A DNA stretch of 51,615 nt, filler included, from Dirinaria sp. TL-2023a (Eukaryota): assembly GCA_051941275.1 (NCBI GenBank). It is 2 parts of 2 records of this genome, joined end to end, with 100 filler letters (N's around TTAATTAATTAA, not from the genome) between each part and the next. Parts side by side here need not be neighbours in the genome. Positions count along the whole stretch, not along the records: positions 25,892 to 51,615 come from JAVEBF010000170.1; 1 more part is not named here. One strand, written 5' to 3'. The notes under the pieces were generated by a model, which saw nothing but the letters and a program-made list of their open reading frames with translations, did not search any database and was not told where the DNA came from. How positions within the stretch are numbered: the stretch's first letter is position 1; every line of letters begins with the position of its first letter. Positions 1 to 51,615 of the stretch are shown piece by piece. Made by a program: the position numbers and the translations under genes.

Positions 1-3000
1 GGGAAGAGAGGAGCAGGTCGACGATGATGGAGGCGGTTAAGTCCACGGGGATCCAGGAGATGGTGTTCATGCTTGGGAGGGTGGTGGGGATTTTGGAGAG
101 GTATTTCGAGGAGGCTATTATCTGATTTTTTCCCGGGTAACTTATTAGTTATGTGTGTGTGCGGGGTGAGGGCGGAGGGAGAAACTTACACTGGGCAACC
201 ACTCCTGCTTGCCCCATACCCCTTCCTTGACCACCGGCCCCGCGAGCTGGCCCACGCGAACAATGGCGGCCGAGATCCCGGATTGCTCCGTCGCGGCCTC
301 CAGGAGCCGTTCGGCGATGTATTTCGACTCGCCGTACCCCATCGCCGCGGGGATGCTGAAGTCGTGGAAGGCGTGTTCCGGCACTTTCTCGTCCGGGTGC
401 TTGAGCGGCCAGTTGTTCAGCGTGGAGACGCTGGATGTGAACAGGATCGGCGGCTTTCGGGCAGATTGATGGGACAGTTCGATCAAGTCCCGCACTCCGG
501 CGATGTGGGGCTGGAAGGATTCGAGGCTGAGATTGAAGTCTACCTGCCATTGGTTGTCTTTTTGACGGATTTTGAATTAGCTGAAGTTGGAAAAGGGAGG
601 TAAGGGTAGGCGGTTTGCTTACGGATTATGAAAGAGGCTTCTTCGACCAGAGTCTCGTACGCCTGAGCATCCAAGCCGAGTTTGGGTTTCCCCAGATCCG
701 TTCTGAAGAACCGGACTTTGTCTCCCCATTCAGTGATCAGACCCCGAGATGCATTGACGCTCTTCTGTTTGTCTTCGCCGTGAACGCCGCGGTTGAGGCA
801 GATGATCTTCGATACTTTCGCGGAGCTTAGCAGCGCGTCGAGCAGATACGATCCAAGCGAGCCAGTGCTACCGGTAAGGACAACGGTGACGCTCTCGTCC
901 TTGGGTGCTTTGACCTCGGCCGTGGCTTTGGGAAGATCCTTGGAGTATTTAGCCAGCATTTCCTCCATGCTCTTAATGCGCTCCTCTTCCATCGCTTTGT
1001 ATACATCTCCACCCTGCGCTGTGAGTTGGTGGAGAGCACTTGCGAGCTTCGTGGCCGTAGGGTTCGAGTAAATGAGTCTCGGGGTGATCAAGTGCGGAGC
1101 GATCCCTCCTTCTTCCCCCGTGAAGGAAGACTTCAGCTGCCGTACGAGATTCATGACCTGCAGAGAATCCATTCCTGCGGTAAAGACATCCTGCTCAGGA
1201 CTCAGGTCTTTGAATCCAAGAATCGCGCTCAGAGACTCCAAGATGGCTTTTTCGAGACCGGGCAGATCCCTACCGTCCAGCTGCACGGTGGACAAGGATG
1301 TCGCAAAGACCTCGGCGTCCGCATAGATCTGGTCAATCTCATGCTCATATGCCTTCGCTGTTGCGGCTCGCTTGACAGTCCCTTTGTCAGTCAAGGCCAT
1401 CGATTTGCCAGCTTTAGTGAAACCAATCCATTCCGGTAGGAGTCTCGCGAACCTCGGAGCCGCTTGGTTGGCCTCGTCAAGGTACGGCTTCAGCGAGTCG
1501 AGCATCTCCTTTTTCGCCTTGTCCGACAATGAAGGCTGGCCTCTGAGCTGGATCAAGGCCGCTGGCTGGAATCGGGCTTGGCCAACTACCAAAATGTGAG
1601 CCACATCTGGATGAGATTGCAGTGTCGCTTCCATGCCGCCCGGATTGAACTTTTCCCCATTGGAAAACACGATCATGTTGTCGGCTCTGCCTTCGTATCG
1701 CCACAGGTTGGGTTTTGTAGGGTGCTTGGAAAACAAGTCCCGTGGCTCGTACTCTTGACTGTCGGGAAACGTGTACCATACTGAATGGTAAGGGTCTGTG
1801 GAAGGATGGCGAACAAAGACCTGCTCATAGAGAGCACCTTCAACTTGACGAAATTCTATGCCTTTCATTTCAGGATCGAAGTGGAAGTAGATCCAATCCT
1901 CTGGCTCCTTATCATAGAGCGGTAGGAAAGCTGCTTCTGAGGAGCCGATGACATTGTGGAGTATTGCGTATTTGGCAATCGTGTCACCAGCACGCTGGGC
2001 AAGGGGACCTAAGTCTGCAGTCAGCATGTGCGGGGAAACCCAGTGTTCTTGCCAGAAAGTCCTACCGCCTCCGAATTTGATATAGGTGCATTTGGCCAGC
2101 TTTTCCAGGGAGGTTTGCGACTGGCTCATTTCCTCAAGTAGGGAAGGCGCTAGGAAACATGTGTCTGTCTGGACATTGTCGAGAACTTCCTCCACCAATT
2201 CTGCACTGATTGGCCGATCTGCAGGCGGCCAAACGATTGTCTGCGCATAGCATAACGGCAAAGTAAGAGCGCTCAGTATGCCTGCCATCTGTGCTATCAC
2301 TTTAGCAAATGGAGGTTATCACAGAAGACAGATGGTGATCTTCAATCACTCACATGAAATGGAGGCAGGCCGGCAAATACGCGCTCAGGGCCTCTGGCCT
2401 TTGAAATCGTAAGTAATGGCCGGTATCCGTTCAAGTTAGGCATTTCATGGTGCGTATCCAGAGTTGCAAGGCCTCCGTGACGCAAGGTGATGGGCTTTGG
2501 CATGCCGGTGGATCCAGAAGTGTGGATCACGATGAAAGGGTCATGAGCTGCCTCCTCGAACGATTTCTCGAATGGGTAGGGCGCAACAGACTCTTGACTG
2601 ACCCAGTCATCAAAAGTGCGGATGGTAGCATGCCACATGGAACGCTTGGCCAAGATGTGATCCACTTTGCTCCCCGGCGCACTCAGCATGTAGTGACATT
2701 GGGTAGATTCGAGCAATGAGAGGAGGCCTTCGACACTATTACGTGGGGAAGGTAGCAGTGTCTTGATCCCGTATCAGTTTGATGCTGTTCAGGTTTCTGA
2801 GTGGTGACTGACCTTATAACCTGCCTTCGTAGCAGCCAAAGCAATGACAAAGTATCTAAGGTCCGCTACAAATCGTCAGAGGCGGATTTTAAATGGTTCG
2901 GTAGAGTAGTGACTCACTGGGGCCAATGTAGGCAATTGTGTCAAATTTCGTGCTTTTGCCAGCTGTAGAGTCGATCCGATGGGCAACTTCATTCACTGCT

Positions 3001-25791: not shown

Positions 25792-25891
25792 NNNNNNNNN
25801 NNNNNNNNNNNNNNNNNNNNNNNNNNNNNNNNNNNTTAATTAATTAANNNNNNNNNNNNNNNNNNNNNNNNNNNNNNNNNNNNNNNNNNNN
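25792..25891. other. Artificial assembly spacer
   Basis: Exactly 100 nt: 44 N + TTAATTAATTAA (stops in all six frames) + 44 N. Confidence 0.97.
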
Positions 25892-40726: not shown

Positions 40727-42910
40727 ATGGCAGCTGTATCGACTTTCCCCTCTGATATGGGTCTAAAGTCAGGAGGTGTAGAGCCAGATCCTAATCCCTG
40801 GCAGCACCATGGGCGGAGTAATCAGGACGTGAGTCTATCCATTTGCTTCTCTTTACTGGCATGTCCAATCTACTGTTGCGCTGTTGAACCATGACTTGAT
40901 TCTTGCTCTCTCAACAAAAGCTAGTCCCTATTTCAATCATGGCCCCCACCAGCACGCTGACTTCCTTATCAATTATAGCGAACAGCAACACCGTTTACCC
41001 AGCCATTTACTCCCGTTCAGCAGGCCGATCAACATCCAAGACCGAACGTCAGACATCCGTCACGCCAGCAAGCAAATGGTGCCTCCAAATATTCCCACGC
41101 TGTCGCTCAACACCTGAACGGAGAACAAGAAGGCCGTCACGACTCAGCTCAAACATCCCAACCTCCTGCTCCACCCAATGACTCTAATTTCCTATCACCC
41201 TACAAACACAACGCGGCAAACGGCGCCAACGCGAGCAGAAGTGGAAGTGAAGCAGATAGTCTGCTCGACCTTTATGGTCAACCAAGAAGTATAGCCGGCA
41301 GCATAGAGCGAAGGGATAACAGGACACCCCCTCATACAGTCCCAAATGTACCGAACAGCCCAGAAATTCTCTATGTGAGCAGAGAAGACCCTGATAGTTC
41401 GAAATGGGTACACCGAGATAAGTTGGCCCTAATCGAAAGCCACGAGCTTCAGGAAGCTGGTATCAAAATACCCCGGCACAGCAGTCTTCGCGGGCGATCG
41501 AACAGTAAAAGTAAGAACAGAAGAGGGCAAAGCAAAGGCCATAGCCGGGGCCAGAGCGTGAATGGCGAAGAAAGCGAAATGCCACAAAGCAGGGACGGCA
41601 AGCGGCAGCGGATGCGCTCCCCAGAGCGGCAAGAGGAAGAAACCCCTGATGTCCCCATGGACTATGATCTGCGCACCCCAGAAGAAATTGTTGCAGCTCG
41701 TAACGAACCCACCTCATCGGCCTTGTATCGGCAACAGGGGCTCCGGGCTACTTCTAGCTCTTCGCGCATCCCACTCCCTACCTCCAGCCCTATGCCGATT
41801 CCACAGGAGCATCGCGAGCGACACATTCCTCTTCCCCGAACGCGCGGAGCGAGTGGCAGCTGGGCCGGGGAGGACGATCCAATCGCCTATCCCAAAAACC
41901 GCCGCAGAAGCCACAGCGGCGGCAGCCAGATCCTGCTCGACGACACAGACCCTCTGAACGGAACAACGACACCCATACCCGATCCAACAGCCAGCCAACA
42001 GGGCACTCCTTCTTCCACATCTCCGTCGAAAATCCGTTCCGCGAGCAGTAAACTCCTCCCCACCGCAGCCGCCGCTTCAGCGCGCAAAGCCTCCGCGGCG
42101 CTTCGCAACAACATCAACATGGCGGCCCCAGAACAGCCACAAGCACAAGCCCAGCCAAAACCACGCTCCACCTCCACAAACTCCGCTCGGGGCTCTCCAG
42201 CAGCAGCATCAGGAACAAGACCGAAGTCGCGCTCTGGCCTTGAACCCCGCCCTGCTACCGCAATCAACCGGCCCGAGGGCGAAGCACCATGGTTAGCCAC
42301 GATGTACAAACCCGACCCCCGCTTACCGCCGGACCAACAGGTAATTCCGACGCATGCGAAGAAATTACAGCAACAGCAGCAACAACGCGAACAACAAGGG
42401 CGGAGCGCAGACCAACAACCAGTAGAAGACATTCGAAACCGAGGAAGGGCCCAAGGGCAGAGAGATAAAGAAAGTGCCTTCAGCCCCGTAGCAGTACACA
42501 CGAACAACGGTCTGCAACCCCCAAGCCCATCGAGCAGAACGGACATCCCAACCCCCGTCCCTTCCCCACGCGCCCTGAACGAAAAGAGTTCGGCCGAGAA
42601 ACCTGGCTGGCCGCTCAAGGTGTCGCCTTCACCTAATCCCGACACTACCCACCTTCCTGCAAGTACTCCCGCGGTAGGAGGGACTCACAATTCTCCTGGC
42701 AGCGCAGCAGCAGCAGCACAAGTGGGAAGCAACAATGGTGGTTATAGCACGATGCCGAAAGTCGCTCCTAGTGGTACTAGCCCCTCTACGCCTACCCATC
42801 CGCGGACACAAGCTATGCCGATGGCGATGGGGATGGGAATGGGGATGGATGAGAAGGCCGTGGGGAAGGAGAAGGAGAAAGGGTGTGGTGGGTGCTGTGT
42901 GGTTATGTGA
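40727..42910 (+). CDS. teaR: TeaR-like prenylated cell-end marker receptor
   Basis: Exons 40727-40828 and 40979-42910. Blocks SEADSLLDLY, SKWVHRDKLALIES.EL, RPEGEAPWLATMYKPDPRLPPDQQVIPTHAK. C-terminal CAAX GCCVVM. Confidence 0.78.
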
Positions 42911-43566
42911 ATTGAATCGAACCGAATCGAGATGATTGCTACCTATGCTATGGGACTTACGATGGGGAGGTTTGTATTTACTCAGGGAGGGAGGAGGGTA
43001 GCGAGCATAGCTGGTTACTAGGTGTGAGTGGGAAGTTGCGGAGTTGTATATACCTCTTTTATTTCGAGAGCTTACTTTATAAGCTTCGCTGCGCGCTCTG
43101 AACAAATGGGCTGTTTGATGCCACGCGGGGCCCCGTTTGGGGTCAAGAGCTCAAAGGCTGTCAGTCGACTATTGATGCTGCGCTCATAGGCTCTAACTGT
43201 GAATGAGGTCGAGGAATGCATGGTCTGATTTGAGAGCGGTATTTATGCGAAAAGATCCATTCTCTTTTTCTGTGCTGTGCTCTAATCTTTGCAGACTACT
43301 AATGATCTCACAGCGGAAGAGTTGCTGAGAGAGTGTGGGGAAGCGTGTAGGCAGATTCTCAAGTTAAGCTCCCTCCTTGACTCTAAAATAACTTTTTCAG
43401 TAAGTGCTGACTAGGACCTGACATCCTTCAGTTGCTCTTATTTACACCTGCAGCCGATTTGCGCGGCATCTCGGACGAGTCACAGTGACCCGGCTCAGTT
43501 GAAGAGCTGCTGTCCGTATCACCATAGCAGCCATGTCTGGTTTGATAGATAAATTGCTGACTTTCG

Positions 43567-44340
43567 CTAGCGACGGATGACGTAGTAGAAAATCTGCAGT
43601 TCATGCGCTAAAGCTTTTGCGTCTTCCTCACTATAGAGCTCCATGTCCAGCAGAGTACCGGATTTTAAAGAAATCTTAACTTTAGTGCTGTCATGGACGC
43701 AAAGCTCTGAGAGCAAAACAGGATAGAACGGCCAAAAGAGCCAAGTGCAGAATATCGGGCTGGGTGCTGACTCACTGTCGGTTTCGAGCTTGAAACTAAA
43801 AGTGGTTCGGTCGTCGCTCCAGAGGAAAAGAAACTGCTCTCGCGGCGGGTCGCTTTTGTATCCGGAGCTATCCGTCTCATTTTCTCTATCACTTGGGTTA
43901 TACGCCTCCAATGTACGCAACAGATAGCGGGTGCGGGGGCCATAATGATTGAACTTGGTCGTGCAAGGTCAGTGCTGTGCGCTAGTAAGATCATAGGAGC
44001 TTCCTACCCTCTGTTTCTTGCCACTCGCCCGGTGTGCCATGGACTTAGAACGAAGAAAAAGGTCCACTAGGACGTCGCAGATCTCATCCATCACAGGCAG
44101 CACAGCACCGAGTGCTAAGAGCTCCTTGCGGATCACTTTGAAACGCACCAGGTGCTCCTCGCTGTACGCCAGCTGGGCCAAGTTGAGGAGTAAAGCTTTA
44201 GCATCTTGCATTATGGCCTCAAGAACCTTATCCAATTTCGCGGCACTGGTGTCTGGCAAGTCTCCGCGGACCGAGGACAATTCCTCAAGGTCCGTGAAGA
44301 AGCCTTTGAGGTCATCATCTAGAGAGCACGTTGAAGGCAT
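43567..44340 (-). CDS. Orphan protein A (~239 aa): helical N-terminus + putative PH-like C-terminal domain
   Basis: Exons 44340-44008 and 43953-43567 join in frame (GTAGGA donor, CTGAC branch, AAG acceptor). Ends VKISLKSGTLLDMELYSEEDAKALAHELQ. Confidence 0.7.
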
Positions 44341-46279
44341 GACTTGTGCAAGGGGAGCCTTGATCAGCGCCTACGGTTGACGAATTTTCAATCAGCAGCC
44401 ATTAGAGATCTTATGACCGACTCCAGCTGAATAAATCGACAACAGTGATCATCATTGTAAAGAGCAAACAAAAATTTTGACCTCGGTTGATGAAGAACAG
44501 AAAGCTTTTTGCATTCACTTCCCTTAACGAGCAAGCGCTAAGCGCCGGATGAGGAAGTCGCAACACAATATATGATACGGGACTTTGTGAGTGCAAGCAC
44601 TTGAAGCTCGACCTGATCACGTTTGGATCAATACCTTGTGATGGAGGTGGTTCTAGCAAAGATACATTCTAGCCGTTACGATGTAGGCACCTGCTTCTCG
44701 ACGACGCATTTCTCCGATGCTCTATCCATCGCTCAAGCTTTAATGTGGACTGAATAACAACTAACAAGTTCACAATAGGGAGAAGGAGAACGTTAGATAG
44801 ATATCAGAGCATATCGAAAAAGCGAAGATGGCCTTGTATTATACGGAACACACACTTTTTGCGTACCAGACTGCGATGAGAAGCGCCGATCCCACTTGTC
44901 AATTGGCAAAATAATCGATCCTCACTCGTGCTAACGTATAGAGCAAATAGACCGGCATAAAAGTCCATCACGGCATCCAATCATAATACTAGCAAGTAAA
45001 CCGCAAGAACGAGCTTCGATGCATTTGCTATGATCAAAAAAGCGAATCAGAGATCAAGATCAAATACACGAGAGCGCAACCCTCACCAGTAATGTCTGCG
45101 TCTTGAAACTTCGAAACGAATAGCATGCACCATCGATTCCCACGTGCAACAACCGCCATAACTGCTTCCTCTTCTTGCTTTACAGCTTTGCAATTCTGGA
45201 AGCTATGAGCATTCACTCACTCATCACTACGCAATCAACACAAAAGCAATTTAGTTCGTCTCATACCGAGACTCCAGAACGAAGAGGAAAATCATCATCG
45301 TTTCCCGTCTAGGGAGTATGGAAAAGCACCGGCGCGCGACCCAGATTCTCAAACCCCGTGATCACAAACATACAGCTTTTCGACGTGAACGACAACTCCT
45401 CAACCCTTCCTGCCCTGACAGAGTTCCACAGAGCTGCACTGCCGATATAGACAACGAAATTGCCATCGTTGTGTCAAATCAAGGGACAGGTCCACATGGA
45501 ACAGTCATGCCGCCCTGTATTACTAGATCAGATGAACGCGCTGCTGTATGCATGAAACACGCAAAAATTCGTCAACAGCTCCATGGCAATGGTGCAACTC
45601 GTTTGACAATGGGCATTGACCAAAGGACAGCCGTTGGGGGATATCTTACGTAACGAAGTCACCATCCCCTTGGAAGTAGGAGTCCGTGCCAATCAAAAAG
45701 CTGACGAAGTGCTCGCTTGAGGGCTACAAATTGTGATATTGGTTGGTACTGAATCGACACATTTGGGGAAAAGCGTGCGGTTGGAGGATGTTGGTAGGTG
45801 CAGTTGCCGCTGAGGCGATTATTGGGAGCACAGTAGGAAACAAAGTCTTGACAGGATGGGGCTGATCTGATGGGTGAGTACATACAAATGCTAAGAGGCA
45901 AAAATACGGCGCCTTCTCATATGTACTCATCGAGTATCCAGACTGCTCATGTCTTTTCCGAATACATCTTGCACTTTATCTTGTACACGCCCCGAATATC
46001 CTAGATGTGCTTTCAATGCCTCGGGGACTAGCATTGATAAAGGTTATAGCTTTGTGTTTTAGGCCTCGTCGCTGCTAGAGGTGACTGTATAACAAGCAAA
46101 GACTGCCTAAAAATGCTGATTCTAGCGCCAACAACTCCCCCGATCTTTGCAGCCGATACCTGGAGTGAGTGTGTTGGCAAAAGAGGGCCTAATTCTTTAT
46201 CGACGGCGACATTGAGGTCGTGGTGGAAGGAAGAGGAAGTGCTGATGAGGTCTCAGAGACACTGTATGCGCAATTTGCC

Positions 46280-46480
46280 ATGAGCAATGGCAATTGCACA
46301 CCAGAAAGAGTGGTAACATCATCATACCAATATGCATACCTGCCATGCTAATATGCGCACGCAATGGCAATTGCCGATGAACAATGACAATTATACACTG
46401 GAGGTGACATGAACAGCCAGAGCGATCAGTTGATCAGTTCATTACGCACACACAATGGCAATTGCACGCCGGAGGTAGAA
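46280..46480. repeat. Short degenerate dispersed repeat CAATGGCAATTGC
   Basis: Four copies near 46285, 46362, 46382 and 46453, some extending to CACNCCRGA. Confidence 0.55.
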
Positions 46481-46949
46481 TTCTGAATGAATGATAATGG
46501 CAAGAGCATGCTCGCGTGCGCAGGAATATCATCAGTGGCCTCAAATGCACGCTTGAGGTAGCATCAACGACCCTAACGATCTAGGTATCGGCATCCAGAC
46601 ATTTCTCTCTAGCTAAGCTAGGCGCTTCAATTTTCAATTTGTTCTCTACAACAAGCTCGGAAATCGTGTCAATCATCGCTCAAAAGGGTCAGCGCTACTG
46701 CAATTTGACTGCAGCTGAATTGAGAGCTGAGGTGGGTCAATGACAAAAAGCATCCTGAAAGAAATCAAAAAAAATCGCTCGAGCGCAGGTAGCTGCTCGC
46801 TCTCTGTTCACGCAATACTATAATTCCCTAAAACCTCGAGTCTCTTGCGGATGCACCAAGGAACGAATTTGAAGTTATTGAAAAGAGCGGGATTTGATGA
46901 CCATTAAAAGAAAAAGAAACCTATCTATGCGCACGAAGCAGATACATAT

Positions 46950-47705
46950 CTAAACTCTTGCCAAAAACTTGATGTCACTCACCAACTTATTCGCCTGTTC
47001 TTGGGAGCCCAATCTAAAGCACATACTACCCCCTCCATGCATCAAGACCACTACCCATGCTTGACCCGAGTATGCGAAAAGGCTTACCGAAACAGCAGAA
47101 TCAAGTGCCAACGTGATTCCATTGAAAAAGGTCCCTCCATTCATATAACCCACCACTCGGTATTGAGTCCGCGTGTGGCTTAGGACGAGGCTCCACACGT
47201 CCGGTACACCATGCGTCGAATCGGTGATTGCGCCCCTTATAAACATGAGACTTATGCGGTGCACCTTAGTCACGCCTGCCAAAATACTAACTCGAGAAAG
47301 CTCCAGGCGTTGTGCTCTGACGAGGTGTTTGAGTCGGTTGTCGATCATTTCCTCGACATGGCAATTCTCCCCGTGGTAGTTGCTGAATTCCCTCTGAAGC
47401 TTGATCAGCCGATGCAAGACAGCTAGCTGTTGGCTCTCGTCCCCAGTAATCGGAGAATTGGATATAGTGGTGACCTTGTGCATGATCACATCCTGGACCG
47501 CCGAGAGCTGACCGATTCGAAGATTTGGTAGAAGGCGCACCCACTCGGAAAGTAAATCCACCTCACGCAGCGTTTGCTCTGGTCGATTGCCGCAGGAATC
47601 ACGGATCCGCACATCGTCATTGATGAAATTCCGTAAAGCAGGTAGATGTTCGAGGAAGGCAGCTGGGTTAATGGCCTGGAGTCCTTTTGCGTATAGAGGT
47701 GCCAT
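46950..47705 (-). CDS. Orphan protein B (~251 aa): helical N-terminus + putative PH-like C-terminal domain
   Basis: Open frame from ATG 47705, TATATAAA ~90 nt upstream on the minus strand. Ends WVVVLMHGGGSMCFRLGSQEQANKLVSDIK. Confidence 0.7.
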   Translation of the reverse strand: MAPLYAKGLQAINPAAFLEHLPALRNFINDDVRIRDSCGNRPEQTLREVDLLSEWVRLLPNLRIGQLSAVQDVIMHKVTTISNSPITGDESQQLAVLHRLIKLQREFSNYHGENCHVEEMIDNRLKHLVRAQRLELSRVSILAGVTKVHRISLMFIRGAITDSTHGVPDVWSLVLSHTRTQYRVVGYMNGGTFFNGITLALDSAVSVSLFAYSGQAWVVVLMHGGGSMCFRLGSQEQANKLVSDIKFLARV

Positions 47706-48307
47706 GCGTACTGTTCGATATGAGTATGGAGATTCTTCGATAATGGAGACTGGCTTGGACACTATTAAGAAAAGCTGAGGAGACAAAAGGAGGTTTATAT
47801 ATAGTTAGTTAGAGAGAGTTCTAATGGGTGTGTTAGGAAATCGAGACAGCATTACTAGCCAATTGCAAATTCCTACCATAACACGCGCTCCCGGAACACC
47901 ATAGCGGCGCCTCATTGATTCCAACTTAGCACAATCTTTGTCGAGAAAAGGCACCATCGCTGCTCTCTAGCTTAAAAGGTGTTGAAACGCCGGAAATACT
48001 AAGTCATCACTTTATGCAAGTGTCCTGCCAACCTGTTCAACATTTGCTAGTCTCGGAGATGACCGCGTAACGAGTCGAACAAAAGCTCTGTTTGATAAAC
48101 AAAAACCCTGTCTAATAACTTATGGGTAATTTTCCAGAGCCATGGGAAATCAAACACGCATGCTAATATCTACCTAACCTACATAGATTGAAGGCTTTCT
48201 TTGTTATCACACAAAGACCCAGGCTACATCCACCAGTTCTCAAAGTCAAGGGCGCAAATCCTCGCACTTGTGTCAGAAAGTATCGGAGCATCTCAAATCT
48301 TTCGAAA

Positions 48308-49271
48308 ATGCCGACGCCCATCGAATTACTAAGGAGACCGTTCCATCCAGAATGTGAGGCAGTAAGAGATGAAGAACCTCTTGCACAACGCGTCGCTTAC
48401 GGCGTCCATCCTAAAAGCGTAAGTATGCTGCTTAAACCACTTTTCGAGGCGCGCTAATAGCAAGGTAAAGACACGTCCTCGGAACTTCTACCACATCATC
48501 TCGATCGGCAAAGACTCCATTGACGGTGGTTGGCCAAGAATACATAAAGAGTGGGAGCATCTCATCTTGACACGTCTCGATGATGACACGTTCGAAGTCA
48601 CGAGCCATATAATGGGACTTGCGACTCCACGCAAAACAGGCTACTTTGTGGGACCTGCGAATTATCGAGAGCTCAGTACCTCTGTTGATCACGAAATAAT
48701 AATCTTCGACCCTACAGATACAAGGTATCATGAGGATACGCCATTTGATGGTTGGTGGGTCAGCGTCCAGACACCAGGCGGTATTGTCAAAATCGTCTTC
48801 TTCACCAAGCGCGATATGTGCAGTTTCGCGCGGGAAATCATGGATATCGTAGACAAGGAAATCCGCACGACCTCATGGATCACTGTTCCGCTGCCACACT
48901 TCAATTCTCTCGAGAGTAGTCTTGCTAAGGTCCATAAGAACCCTTATGAACCGGACCATCAGCTTAACTTCTTTTCAGCCGCCTTCGACCATGACGACCC
49001 GTACATGGAGTGGTGGTTTATTATACAAGCTATTCTTGAAGCGGAAAATGACGAGCGCAGGACTCTTGGCCCCGCAGAGAGGCTCGGGGTTCTGAACAAA
49101 CCGCGAGTGAGGCCAGAGGACGAACTGGTGGAGTTTTCGGATCTTTCGGAAGAAGAACACCTCGAGCTTATCAATGGAGATCAGGGAAAGGAAACGGATT
49201 CGGAGATTTCGGAACTTCCGGAAGAGGAGTGGGAAGATCTCACGAAATGGATGGAAGATCAGAAGCTTTGA
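48308..49271 (+). CDS. Orphan protein C (~305 aa): putative PH-like domain + acidic tail
   Basis: Exons 48308-48418 and 48465-49271 (GTAAGT..GCTAAT..AAG). WVSVQTPGGIVKIVFFTKRDMCSFAREIM. E/D-rich C-terminus. Confidence 0.72.
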
Positions 49272-49773
49272 TATGGGTCTGACATGGCTCAAGATTGGCG
49301 TGCCGATTGTATGCAGATCATGTTGATACAGGGGAACACATTGTGTGATCCAGTCCCAGATGCTGCCGAATTAATTGCGTGTACTTTAGATGCACCTGAA
49401 AGTTCGACCCAGCTTATTCAATGAGCGGTCCTGGGTCTCTCAAGGTATCAAACTTCCCCATAGCATCTCCTTGATCCCTCTTGAACCCCCTTCAACCCTT
49501 AGTACGATCACGTGTTCAGAATAAGCGAGGCTTGGCAGTTTGTAACGATTCAGGGGAAGGGAAAGAACAAAGGACGACCTGACCAACAACCACATCAGTA
49601 CTCATAAACACATCATTCCATCCCAACTCTCCAAGATCCGGTAAGCACACTATTCATCCCATCACATACTTAGTGGGTTCTACATTTCGCCCCAACACTC
49701 ATCATCGACTATTATATCATCATCATCATCATCAACTTAAGGAAGGACAGACAAGCGGCTTTTCCGCCGAGAA

Positions 49774-51006
49774 ATGGCCTGGCAAGCGCGAGGGCGAGGA
49801 GGGCGAGGTCAAGCAAATCAATTGTTTCGCCAACAGCAGGCCCCTCAGCGGGCCCCGGTACAAAATGCACAGCAGCCCCCTCCTGGACAAGGCTCAAACC
49901 GCCAACAACAACCCATTCAGCAACAGCCATATCGACAAGCATCTCAGCCAACCCCTCAAGGAAACGGTGCGTACCCACGGCAGCAACCACGTCAACACGC
50001 GCCGCCCCAAGGTGCATTTCCGCAGGCCCCTGCAGGAAACAGTGCAGACCGCGAGCAACAACTCAACCAGGCACCACCACCTCAGAATCCGTGGCAGCAG
50101 GGTCCTCCAGGAAACGGCTCGTACCGCCAACAGCAGCCCTCCCAGCGACTGCCGATTCAAAACATCATCAATGGGCAACAACCCTCTCCAGTTAACGACC
50201 TGTACCTCCAACAGCAACAATATCAGCGATCAGCACTCCAAGATATACAGCAGCCCATACCAGGAGACGGCTCATCCGAGCAGCCACCAGCGGTAGAAAA
50301 TGCATGGCAACCATCACCCAACTTCAGTCCGAACGGCATCTGGCCCCTCACTAGCGCCGTTTGTTGGAAGCCCATGTACCATATCAAGCTTGGCCCAGAC
50401 CCAGAAGCGCTGGAAAATTCGAGTGACTCTAGCAATCCCAGCTCGTCGAATCAGCGTGATCAATCCAATTTGGTCAATCACGCGCATGCGTCCAATGGAA
50501 TCAACCAGAACAGTAATCATCCCAGTCAACTCAATCAATTCAGCCAGGGAAACAAACAGCCCACAGAGAACGCTAAGCCCAGAAGTCCAATTGATTGGGG
50601 GATCAAAACAATCTTCACTGAGGCAGTCTCTATCAGACTCAACGCAGAGCATACGCAATATGACGTATGGTATATGCCCGAGGGTACAGAAGTCGAGAAA
50701 CGGGCTGGATTTGGCTTCACGGTGGGGGATGTGAGATGGATCGAAAACCCTGAAAAAGTGCCTCTAGTGAGGGTGATGGTAGGGAACGATAATATCATCG
50801 AGCTAACCTTTTTCACGTGGAATGCCAAGCATAAGGAAGGTTTTTGGAACCAGGTGAGACAGTTGGCACAGTTGGAGGAACGAGGCTCCTACGAAGGCAC
50901 CAAGGATGAGAAGTACAGGGAAGGTGTAAAACATATGTTGTGGAAGAAGGAGCCTGTCAAGGAGAAAGATCAAGTGGAGAAAAAGGTTCCGGGCTATGAA
51001 TTCTGA
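49774..51006 (+). CDS. Orphan protein D (410 aa): RGG + Q/P/G/N repeat N-terminus, putative PH-like C-terminal domain
   Basis: Intronless ORF starting MAWQARGRGGRG, repeated P.GNGSYRQQQP.Q-like units, and VRVMVGNDNIIELTFFTWNAKHKEGFWNQVRQL. Confidence 0.8.
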   Translation: MAWQARGRGGRGQANQLFRQQQAPQRAPVQNAQQPPPGQGSNRQQQPIQQQPYRQASQPTPQGNGAYPRQQPRQHAPPQGAFPQAPAGNSADREQQLNQAPPPQNPWQQGPPGNGSYRQQQPSQRLPIQNIINGQQPSPVNDLYLQQQQYQRSALQDIQQPIPGDGSSEQPPAVENAWQPSPNFSPNGIWPLTSAVCWKPMYHIKLGPDPEALENSSDSSNPSSSNQRDQSNLVNHAHASNGINQNSNHPSQLNQFSQGNKQPTENAKPRSPIDWGIKTIFTEAVSIRLNAEHTQYDVWYMPEGTEVEKRAGFGFTVGDVRWIENPEKVPLVRVMVGNDNIIELTFFTWNAKHKEGFWNQVRQLAQLEERGSYEGTKDEKYREGVKHMLWKKEPVKEKDQVEKKVPGYEF

Positions 51007-51615
51007 AGCGAACAGTAAACCGGCCAGTGGCACGTGGATGGTCATTCGTTTTGTAAGATAGTTTTTTAGAGCGAGGTTCAGTAGAGAAAAGTATAATCCC
51101 ATTATTTCCGGACTACTGTCCGGAATTAAATTTCAGCTAACTCTACTATTATTTAAATTGGACCACCTGAAACTATTCTCCCCGCTCTAACATCCTTGTC
51201 AGCGCATTTTTTCTCCTAAGGCCTCTAAGCGAGCCCGCCAAAACTACCTTACCTTATACCCCAATCCAACTTCCATCCCAGACCACACACAAAAAAAAAG
51301 AAAAATACCGATACACCACGCGCCCCTCAACCCCCAAAACCGCAGGTAATAACCTCCAAAAAACAAATTTCTTATCTCCCCTCCTTTTCATATCCCTCTC
51401 AAAAGAAATCCGCCCCCTTCTCTCCCCCCAAAAGACATCCCATATCCCACTCTGCATGCCAACACTCTCAAAAACCAGCGTATCAAGAATTTTCGCCAGG
51501 AATCGAGACTGTTAAATCGTGGGTTTTTTTCATGGAGAGGATAAGTTTGAGATGTGAGTTGGACATTTCGGGGGGATTTTGCATTGGAAGGTTGGTTTTA
51601 TGGTGAGAGCTGGGT

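Follow-up and report, generated by a model that had tools for sequence, protein, structure and literature searches.

Genes A to D are four adjacent orphan genes on a stretch of DNA from the lichen fungus Dirinaria sp. TL-2023a (GenBank assembly GCA_051941275.1). The window, meaning the whole stretch that was analysed, is 51,615 nucleotides long and the genes occupy positions 43567 to 51006. A and B are old tandem paralogues and belong to an unnamed, lineage-restricted, fast-changing family of small soluble fungal proteins. The family unites a four-helix unit with a pleckstrin homology (PH)-like domain, a new domain architecture for an otherwise known superfamily. We assign a probability of about 0.5 to the reading that its members are cytoplasmic adaptors made of a helical bundle and a PH-like domain, probably protein-binding and subject to birth-and-death evolution.

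Gene B (46950–47705, minus strand) consists of one exon encoding 251 residues, with homologues in other organisms at 60% and 70% identity. An AlphaFold model of B was obtained with a predicted local distance difference test (pLDDT) score of 71.7 and a predicted template modelling score of 0.43. The N-terminal domain (model residues 43–137; 47298–47582) contains four helices as assigned by DSSP, with pLDDT of 69–90 per ten-residue block. The C-terminal domain (model residues 146–252; 46953–47273) is modelled as a beta sandwich of two sheets with a C-terminal helix closing it, the arrangement of the PH superfamily, and 50/50 of the structural matches listed cover a PH-superfamily domain. An earlier, sequence-only reading had proposed such a domain in all four genes; for B, structure prediction followed by structure search recovered it, and B is predicted by its model to have a PH-like fold. 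A language-model search also listed PH clusters at 0.75–0.76, which serves as a lead only. NCBI annotates both B and C as hypothetical proteins. The NCBI model of B has 214 residues and exchanges the last strands and helix for a short different tail (46950–47090). It was rejected as probably mis-spliced because P0006 and P0007 conserve the unspliced end in frame.

Gene A (43567–44340, minus strand) encodes 239 residues with a predicted start and a predicted intron. Exon 1 (44008–44340) holds the family helical domain and is followed directly by a 54-nt phase-0 intron (43954–44007), whose phase and position just past the helical domain match those in two further family copies, E and F, and those of the equivalent donor in L018, a locus from outside this genome. 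Exon 2 (43567–43953) contains the strand-turn-strand-helix motif noted by the sequence-only reading (43680–43597). When both domains were scored jointly for order and spacing, A reached −22.7 compared with −32.9 for the best decoy (0/1013 decoy bins as good). Against the family profile of the helical domain (N profile), exon 1 was equalled by 0/694 decoys and 1/200 shuffles, and by 1/1755 decoy open reading frames (ORFs) in a larger set. Against the whole profile of the C-terminal domain (C profile), 2/1755 decoys scored as well as exon 2, both of them HeLo-like helical ORFs. A profile of the strand-strand-helix motif built without A, C and D gave 22.4 for A, and the decoy maximum was 7.0 (0/1755). 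These profile comparisons identify A as a remote paralogue of B, and its second exon presumably adopts a PH-like fold. Because both domains are shared, A and B are whole-gene paralogues and not, as had been proposed, one module fused to different partners.

To define the family, a profile of four rows was searched against 1.84 billion representatives with a cut-off of E up to 0.001. Sixteen proteins were matched, two of them from this genome (B and F), and the family sequences from outside the genome now number 17, counting P0006, P0026 and P0027. In the family the helical domain is usually followed by an intron and then by the PH-like domain. The part that most remote matches have in common is the helical domain of about 95 residues, in which G, Q, R, R and L columns are invariant or nearly so at about 20% identity; the PH-like part diverges faster. 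12/17 outside sequences terminate in or shortly past the helical domain. This is expected if gene callers hit an intron, and in L018 a phase-0 donor was seen at that end of the domain.

The genome contains at least five family copies, arranged as two neighbouring pairs (A-B and E-F) and one copy with stops. F (L007 3956–4596, plus strand, contig C1526) was found with the B search and is convergent with E (L007 5064 to about 5800, minus strand). Before it joined either profile, gene E matched both, with E-values of 1.1e-4 and 9.3e-4 among 1055 ORFs. Two phase-0 introns in E flank an exon of 10 codons, and its 5' part carries a frameshift that may be due to decay or to an assembly error. The copy with in-frame stops (L003 about 1200–1820, minus strand, contig C15), also found by the B search, shares its contig with one NACHT and one HeLo-like gene. 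Neighbours at these two loci differ from those of A-B. Pairs at two loci, together with the broken copies, suggest that the family evolves by birth and death in the manner of recognition genes. Family hidden Markov models (HMMs) found no further member in three sets of genome stretches of about 200, 144 and 200 kb; five copies is a lower bound since these scans took in about 2% of the genome. Each of the two other loci has a nearby ORF (L007 1571–2314 and L008 5194–5841, both minus strand) that begins with a hydrophobic stretch, has no match in Pfam and looks like a small secreted protein.

Other searches left the family without a name. Pfam, NCBIfam and PHROGs gave no significant match, nor did PDB sequences queried with single proteins and profiles, and a viral fold library gave nothing at E 0.001. 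Single-protein searches of the same genome with exon 2 of A, exon 2 of C, the C-terminal 156 residues of D and the last exon of E turned up no paralogue, and those with P0016, P0024, P0021 and P0014 returned already-known copies only. A metagenome scan with the family alignment A1 had no match; with P0026 it gave one 1.1-kb contig, which is too short to show synteny. Titles and abstract openings in the literature contained no description of the family.

The modelled C-terminal domain of B resembles many PH-like domains, including the FERM lobe of JAK1, TYK2 and FAK, the USP37 PH domain, the PTB domains of CCM2 and IRS-1, Homer EVH1, Ran-binding domains and the C-terminal PH domain of pleckstrin, at 4–15% identity. 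Because top rows from different subfamilies tied, no PH subfamily can be assigned. The fold is like that of canonical PH domains (PF00169) by model, with no match in sequence. Pfam PH did not match A–D or their homologues, and a genome scan with PF00169 marked 14 places, 0 of them on family contigs. Against a profile of 13 PH domains from this genome, A–F and four homologues had z scores of −0.7 to 1.4, compared with 2.4–12.5 for true PH domains left out of the profile. Canonical PH membership was rejected since the PH profile was negative and its controls worked. A helical unit also stands directly before a PH-like domain in FERM F2-F3, in DH-PH and in SKAP-Hom (dimerisation domain and PH). 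Such helical and PH chains filled the Foldseek list for B, with alignments restricted to the PH part in nearly all rows, and the helical unit of B matched no such tandem well (root mean square deviation 8.7 Å for the SKAP-Hom row). Unlike the PH-like domains named first, that of the family is joined to an unnamed four-helix unit in a protein of only 200–250 residues.

Phosphoinositide-binding PH domains carry a basic K-Xn-(K/R)-X-R motif in strands 1–2, and PH-like domains without it are mostly peptide or protein binders. This motif was absent from B, C and F, and the matches in A and D precede the domain; atypical lipid sites are conceivable. The anatomy of the proteins, which are small and soluble with two domains, no enzyme domain and no clear membrane segment (no 19-residue hydropathy window above 1.9 in A–D, F and P0024), would suit an intracellular adaptor. 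In such an adaptor the PH-like domain would bind a partner protein or peptide, as in PTB, EVH1 and FERM-F3, rather than a phosphoinositide, and the more conserved helical bundle would be the docking site for an unchanging partner downstream or for a sister copy. A variable PH-like part next to a conserved helical domain fits an adaptor with variable input and constant output, a role for which the odds appear balanced.

Several points weigh against the adaptor reading and the homology beneath it. A shared fold by itself demonstrates no function. Of the 15 rows in the alignment behind the model of B, only 6 extend over the C-terminal domain, and the first strands of that domain have pLDDT near 50. 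In HMMER alone, exon 1 of A was non-significant (E 3.6, rank 3/3310), and the start and intron of A are predictions, one choice among several possible splices. F and P0024 form part of the extended C profile, although they were admitted for their helical domains and their C-terminal parts had z scores of 0.8 and 0.6 against the core profile. The extended profile also gave a false positive, a HeLo-like ORF of 12.6 bits, at the HMM score of A. An HMM E-value of about 0.01 was rejected as sufficient proof for A because this unrelated ORF equalled the score.

Gene C (48308–49271, plus strand) has an intron at 48419–48470, the removal of which reproduces the deposited 303-residue protein P0011 exactly. 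A beta-rich part with the motif (48759–48839) is followed by a helical-looking part and then by an acidic tail. 240/1755 decoys were as good as C against the family C profile. Only with A and D in the profile did the decoys as good as C fall to 1/461, and the shuffles to 0/200, with a misregistered alignment. No homologue of C beyond itself was found among proteins of 146–466 residues. We consider a PH-like fold in C conceivable, at slightly under even odds.

Gene D (49774–51006, plus strand), defined by its ORF and codon usage, encodes 410 residues. Six Q/P-rich repeats of about 75 nt (25 residues; 49808–50229) lie in its N-terminal part, and residues 1–260 consist of 21% Q, 15% P and 10% N. 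An N/Q/S-rich stretch (50440–50560) separates the repeats from a candidate PH-like domain (50587–50889) that contains the motif (50767–50856). The C-terminal 100 residues align colinearly and nearly without gaps to the family C-terminal domain. Against the family C profile, 10/461 decoys and 0/200 shuffles were as good as D, and 33/1755 decoys in the larger set; the family HMM placed D at rank 1/3310 with E 0.24. The signal weakens to 64/461 decoys with A in the profile, and a search of the Atlas gave no usable match for D. The colinear alignment points to D as probably a further PH-like protein, in which a Q/P-rich region would replace the helical bundle.

Codon usage is coding-like in A–D, with log-likelihood ratios of 0.04–0.15 per codon; for comparison, long training ORFs span 0.03–0.13 (10th–90th percentile) and ORFs of 100–140 residues have a median of −0.05. 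All four ORFs and all four quoted motifs are present, and to this extent the earlier description stands. The pattern itself is no better than chance. With flexible gaps, the 28-residue pattern common to A–D scored 99 compared with a mean of 110.8 for the best motif shared by random quadruples of long-ORF pieces, 109/150 of which reached at least 99. Pairwise local alignments of the A–D domains were non-significant in 6/6 cases, and the score of the best, B with D, was reached by 45/500 shuffles. A leave-one-out motif test, in which 0/193, 9/193, 0/193 and 11/193 decoys scored as well as A, B, C and D, respectively, was rejected as proof. Its bias stems from the choice of training motifs, all three of which had been picked for likeness to the one left out. 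With a motif profile built from the family only, the best sites in C and D fell away from the quoted motifs, and 110 and 622 of 1755 decoys, respectively, were as good. Since true PH domains also fail this profile, the misses in C and D do not exclude a PH fold. The proposal of an old local expansion of a PH-like module survives in the old duplication of A and B and the modelled fold of B, and not in the motif similarity of A–D, which is at chance level.

The family might instead comprise sensor-executors of non-self recognition. The PH-like part would sense a foreign or allelic protein, the four-helix part would oligomerise and kill the cell in the manner of MLKL and HeLo-type bundles, and the neighbouring paralogue pairs would be cognate partners. 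The MLKL, HeLo and HeLo-like (PF17111) death domains of fungal NLRs are likewise N-terminal four-helix units, which B has by model, in a fast-evolving fungal family. The paralogue pairs at two loci, the extreme divergence and the broken copies also accord with this proposal, as does the copy on C15 with its NACHT and HeLo-like neighbours. A study of fungal NLRs puts MLKL-like four-helix domains, which are widespread death effectors in fungi, at about 30% of their N-termini, in passages that leave PH domains unmentioned (10.1101/2022.03.16.484565), and a Neurospora study describes lineage-specific genes clustered with HET genes (PMC10684091). The family domain is nevertheless shorter (about 95 residues), its partner is PH-like, and the family proteins showed neither a NACHT nor a kinase nor a HET domain. 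In hhalign the N profile scored 15.2 against 19 HeLo-like domains of this genome, whereas the reversed profile reached 13.0 and the highest of 59 shuffles 15.0. No family member was matched by the HeLo-like HMM at E <0.5 (best E 0.58). HeLo-like kinship by sequence was rejected on these scores; structure searches for the helical unit ran within the whole B model, where the PH part filled the match lists. Pfam HET, NLR/NACHT, HeLo and gasdermin were matched neither in A–D nor in any of 11 long ORFs covered by the scan on the left side of the stretch, with the contig stopping 600 nt after D. The HeLo-like neighbour on C15 carries little weight since the genome has 28 HeLo-like matches. We regard an executor role as quite unlikely.

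The full claim of the sequence-only reading, that A–D arose by local expansion of one PH-like module and form one functional locus, draws on the homology of A and B, the colinear alignment of D, the profile match of C with A and D included, and close spacing (602 nt between the divergent B and C, 502 nt between C and D). It is unlikely, given a shared motif at chance level, best family-profile sites in C and D that lie elsewhere, the misregistered alignment of C and a helical-domain profile that matched neither C nor D. Another explanation is a contig-end patch of unrelated or drifting orphans, where young genes gather, in which B is a real PH-like gene and the others are chance look-alikes. 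The non-significant pairwise alignments, the chance-level motif and a decayed repeat in the A-B gap would all be expected of such a patch; A, however, beat every decoy in the two-domain (1013/1013) and motif (1755/1755) comparisons, B is conserved in other organisms, and a second adjacent pair, E and F, exists on another contig. We regard this explanation as rather improbable. That A–D work as one four-gene system can be put forward as a hypothesis. Its strongest form is very unlikely: all four would be PH-like sensors in a new kind of recognition locus, the four-helix units of A and B oligomerising or cell-death effectors, the Q/N/P-rich region of D a scaffold or prion-like amplifier, and A-B and E-F cognate pairs. 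If true, the locus would serve self/non-self or symbiont recognition by the lichen fungus.

Two orphan genes now belong to a definable family that has a fold, an intron position in common and, as a second domain, an unnamed helical unit. The PH-like fold alone is a modest surprise, because orphan genes can conceal such folds well beneath the reach of sequence comparison; a role would make it a larger one. Recognition genes would be expected to look like this: small, sensor-like, duplicated in pairs and quick to decay. The family offers small soluble proteins for testing the still unsettled question of how a lichen fungus recognises its partners and its rivals; a Xanthoria study describes experimental validation as lacking (10.1101/2024.08.16.608140).

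The window is fungal and consists of two length-sorted contigs spliced at an N spacer (25792–25891). Because contigs were ordered by size and joined in this way, only 25892–51615 (JAVEBF010000170.1) is true genomic context for A–D. The spacer is broken by 12 non-N letters, a joining artefact. A and B are transcribed leftward and C and D rightward, and D is the last gene on its contig, which ends about 600 nt past it. To the left of the cluster are an LMBR1-family gene and a 643-codon ORF with a C-terminal CAAX-type motif, named TeaR, presumably correctly, in the sequence-only reading.

The 2.6-kb gap between A and B contains no convincing gene. The ORF at 45255–45653 was rejected as a fifth gene on its codon log-likelihood ratio of −0.025, and an Rfam scan over 42900–51615 gave no significant match. 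A decayed, dispersed, non-coding repeat, separate from the family, lies at 46004–46180 (no strand assigned) with its conserved part extending to about 46240. The unit is about 190–250 nt long and recurs at 16 further genomic places at 68–81% identity; these copies resemble each other more than they do the copy in the window. It is possibly an element like a SINE (short interspersed nuclear element) or MITE (miniature inverted-repeat transposable element). Downstream of B, at 46275–46465, a word of about 13 bases appears in three copies, spaced 77 and 91 nt apart, amid short broken reading frames. A 127-nt piece (46494–46620) has one match, on contig C30, at 73% identity.

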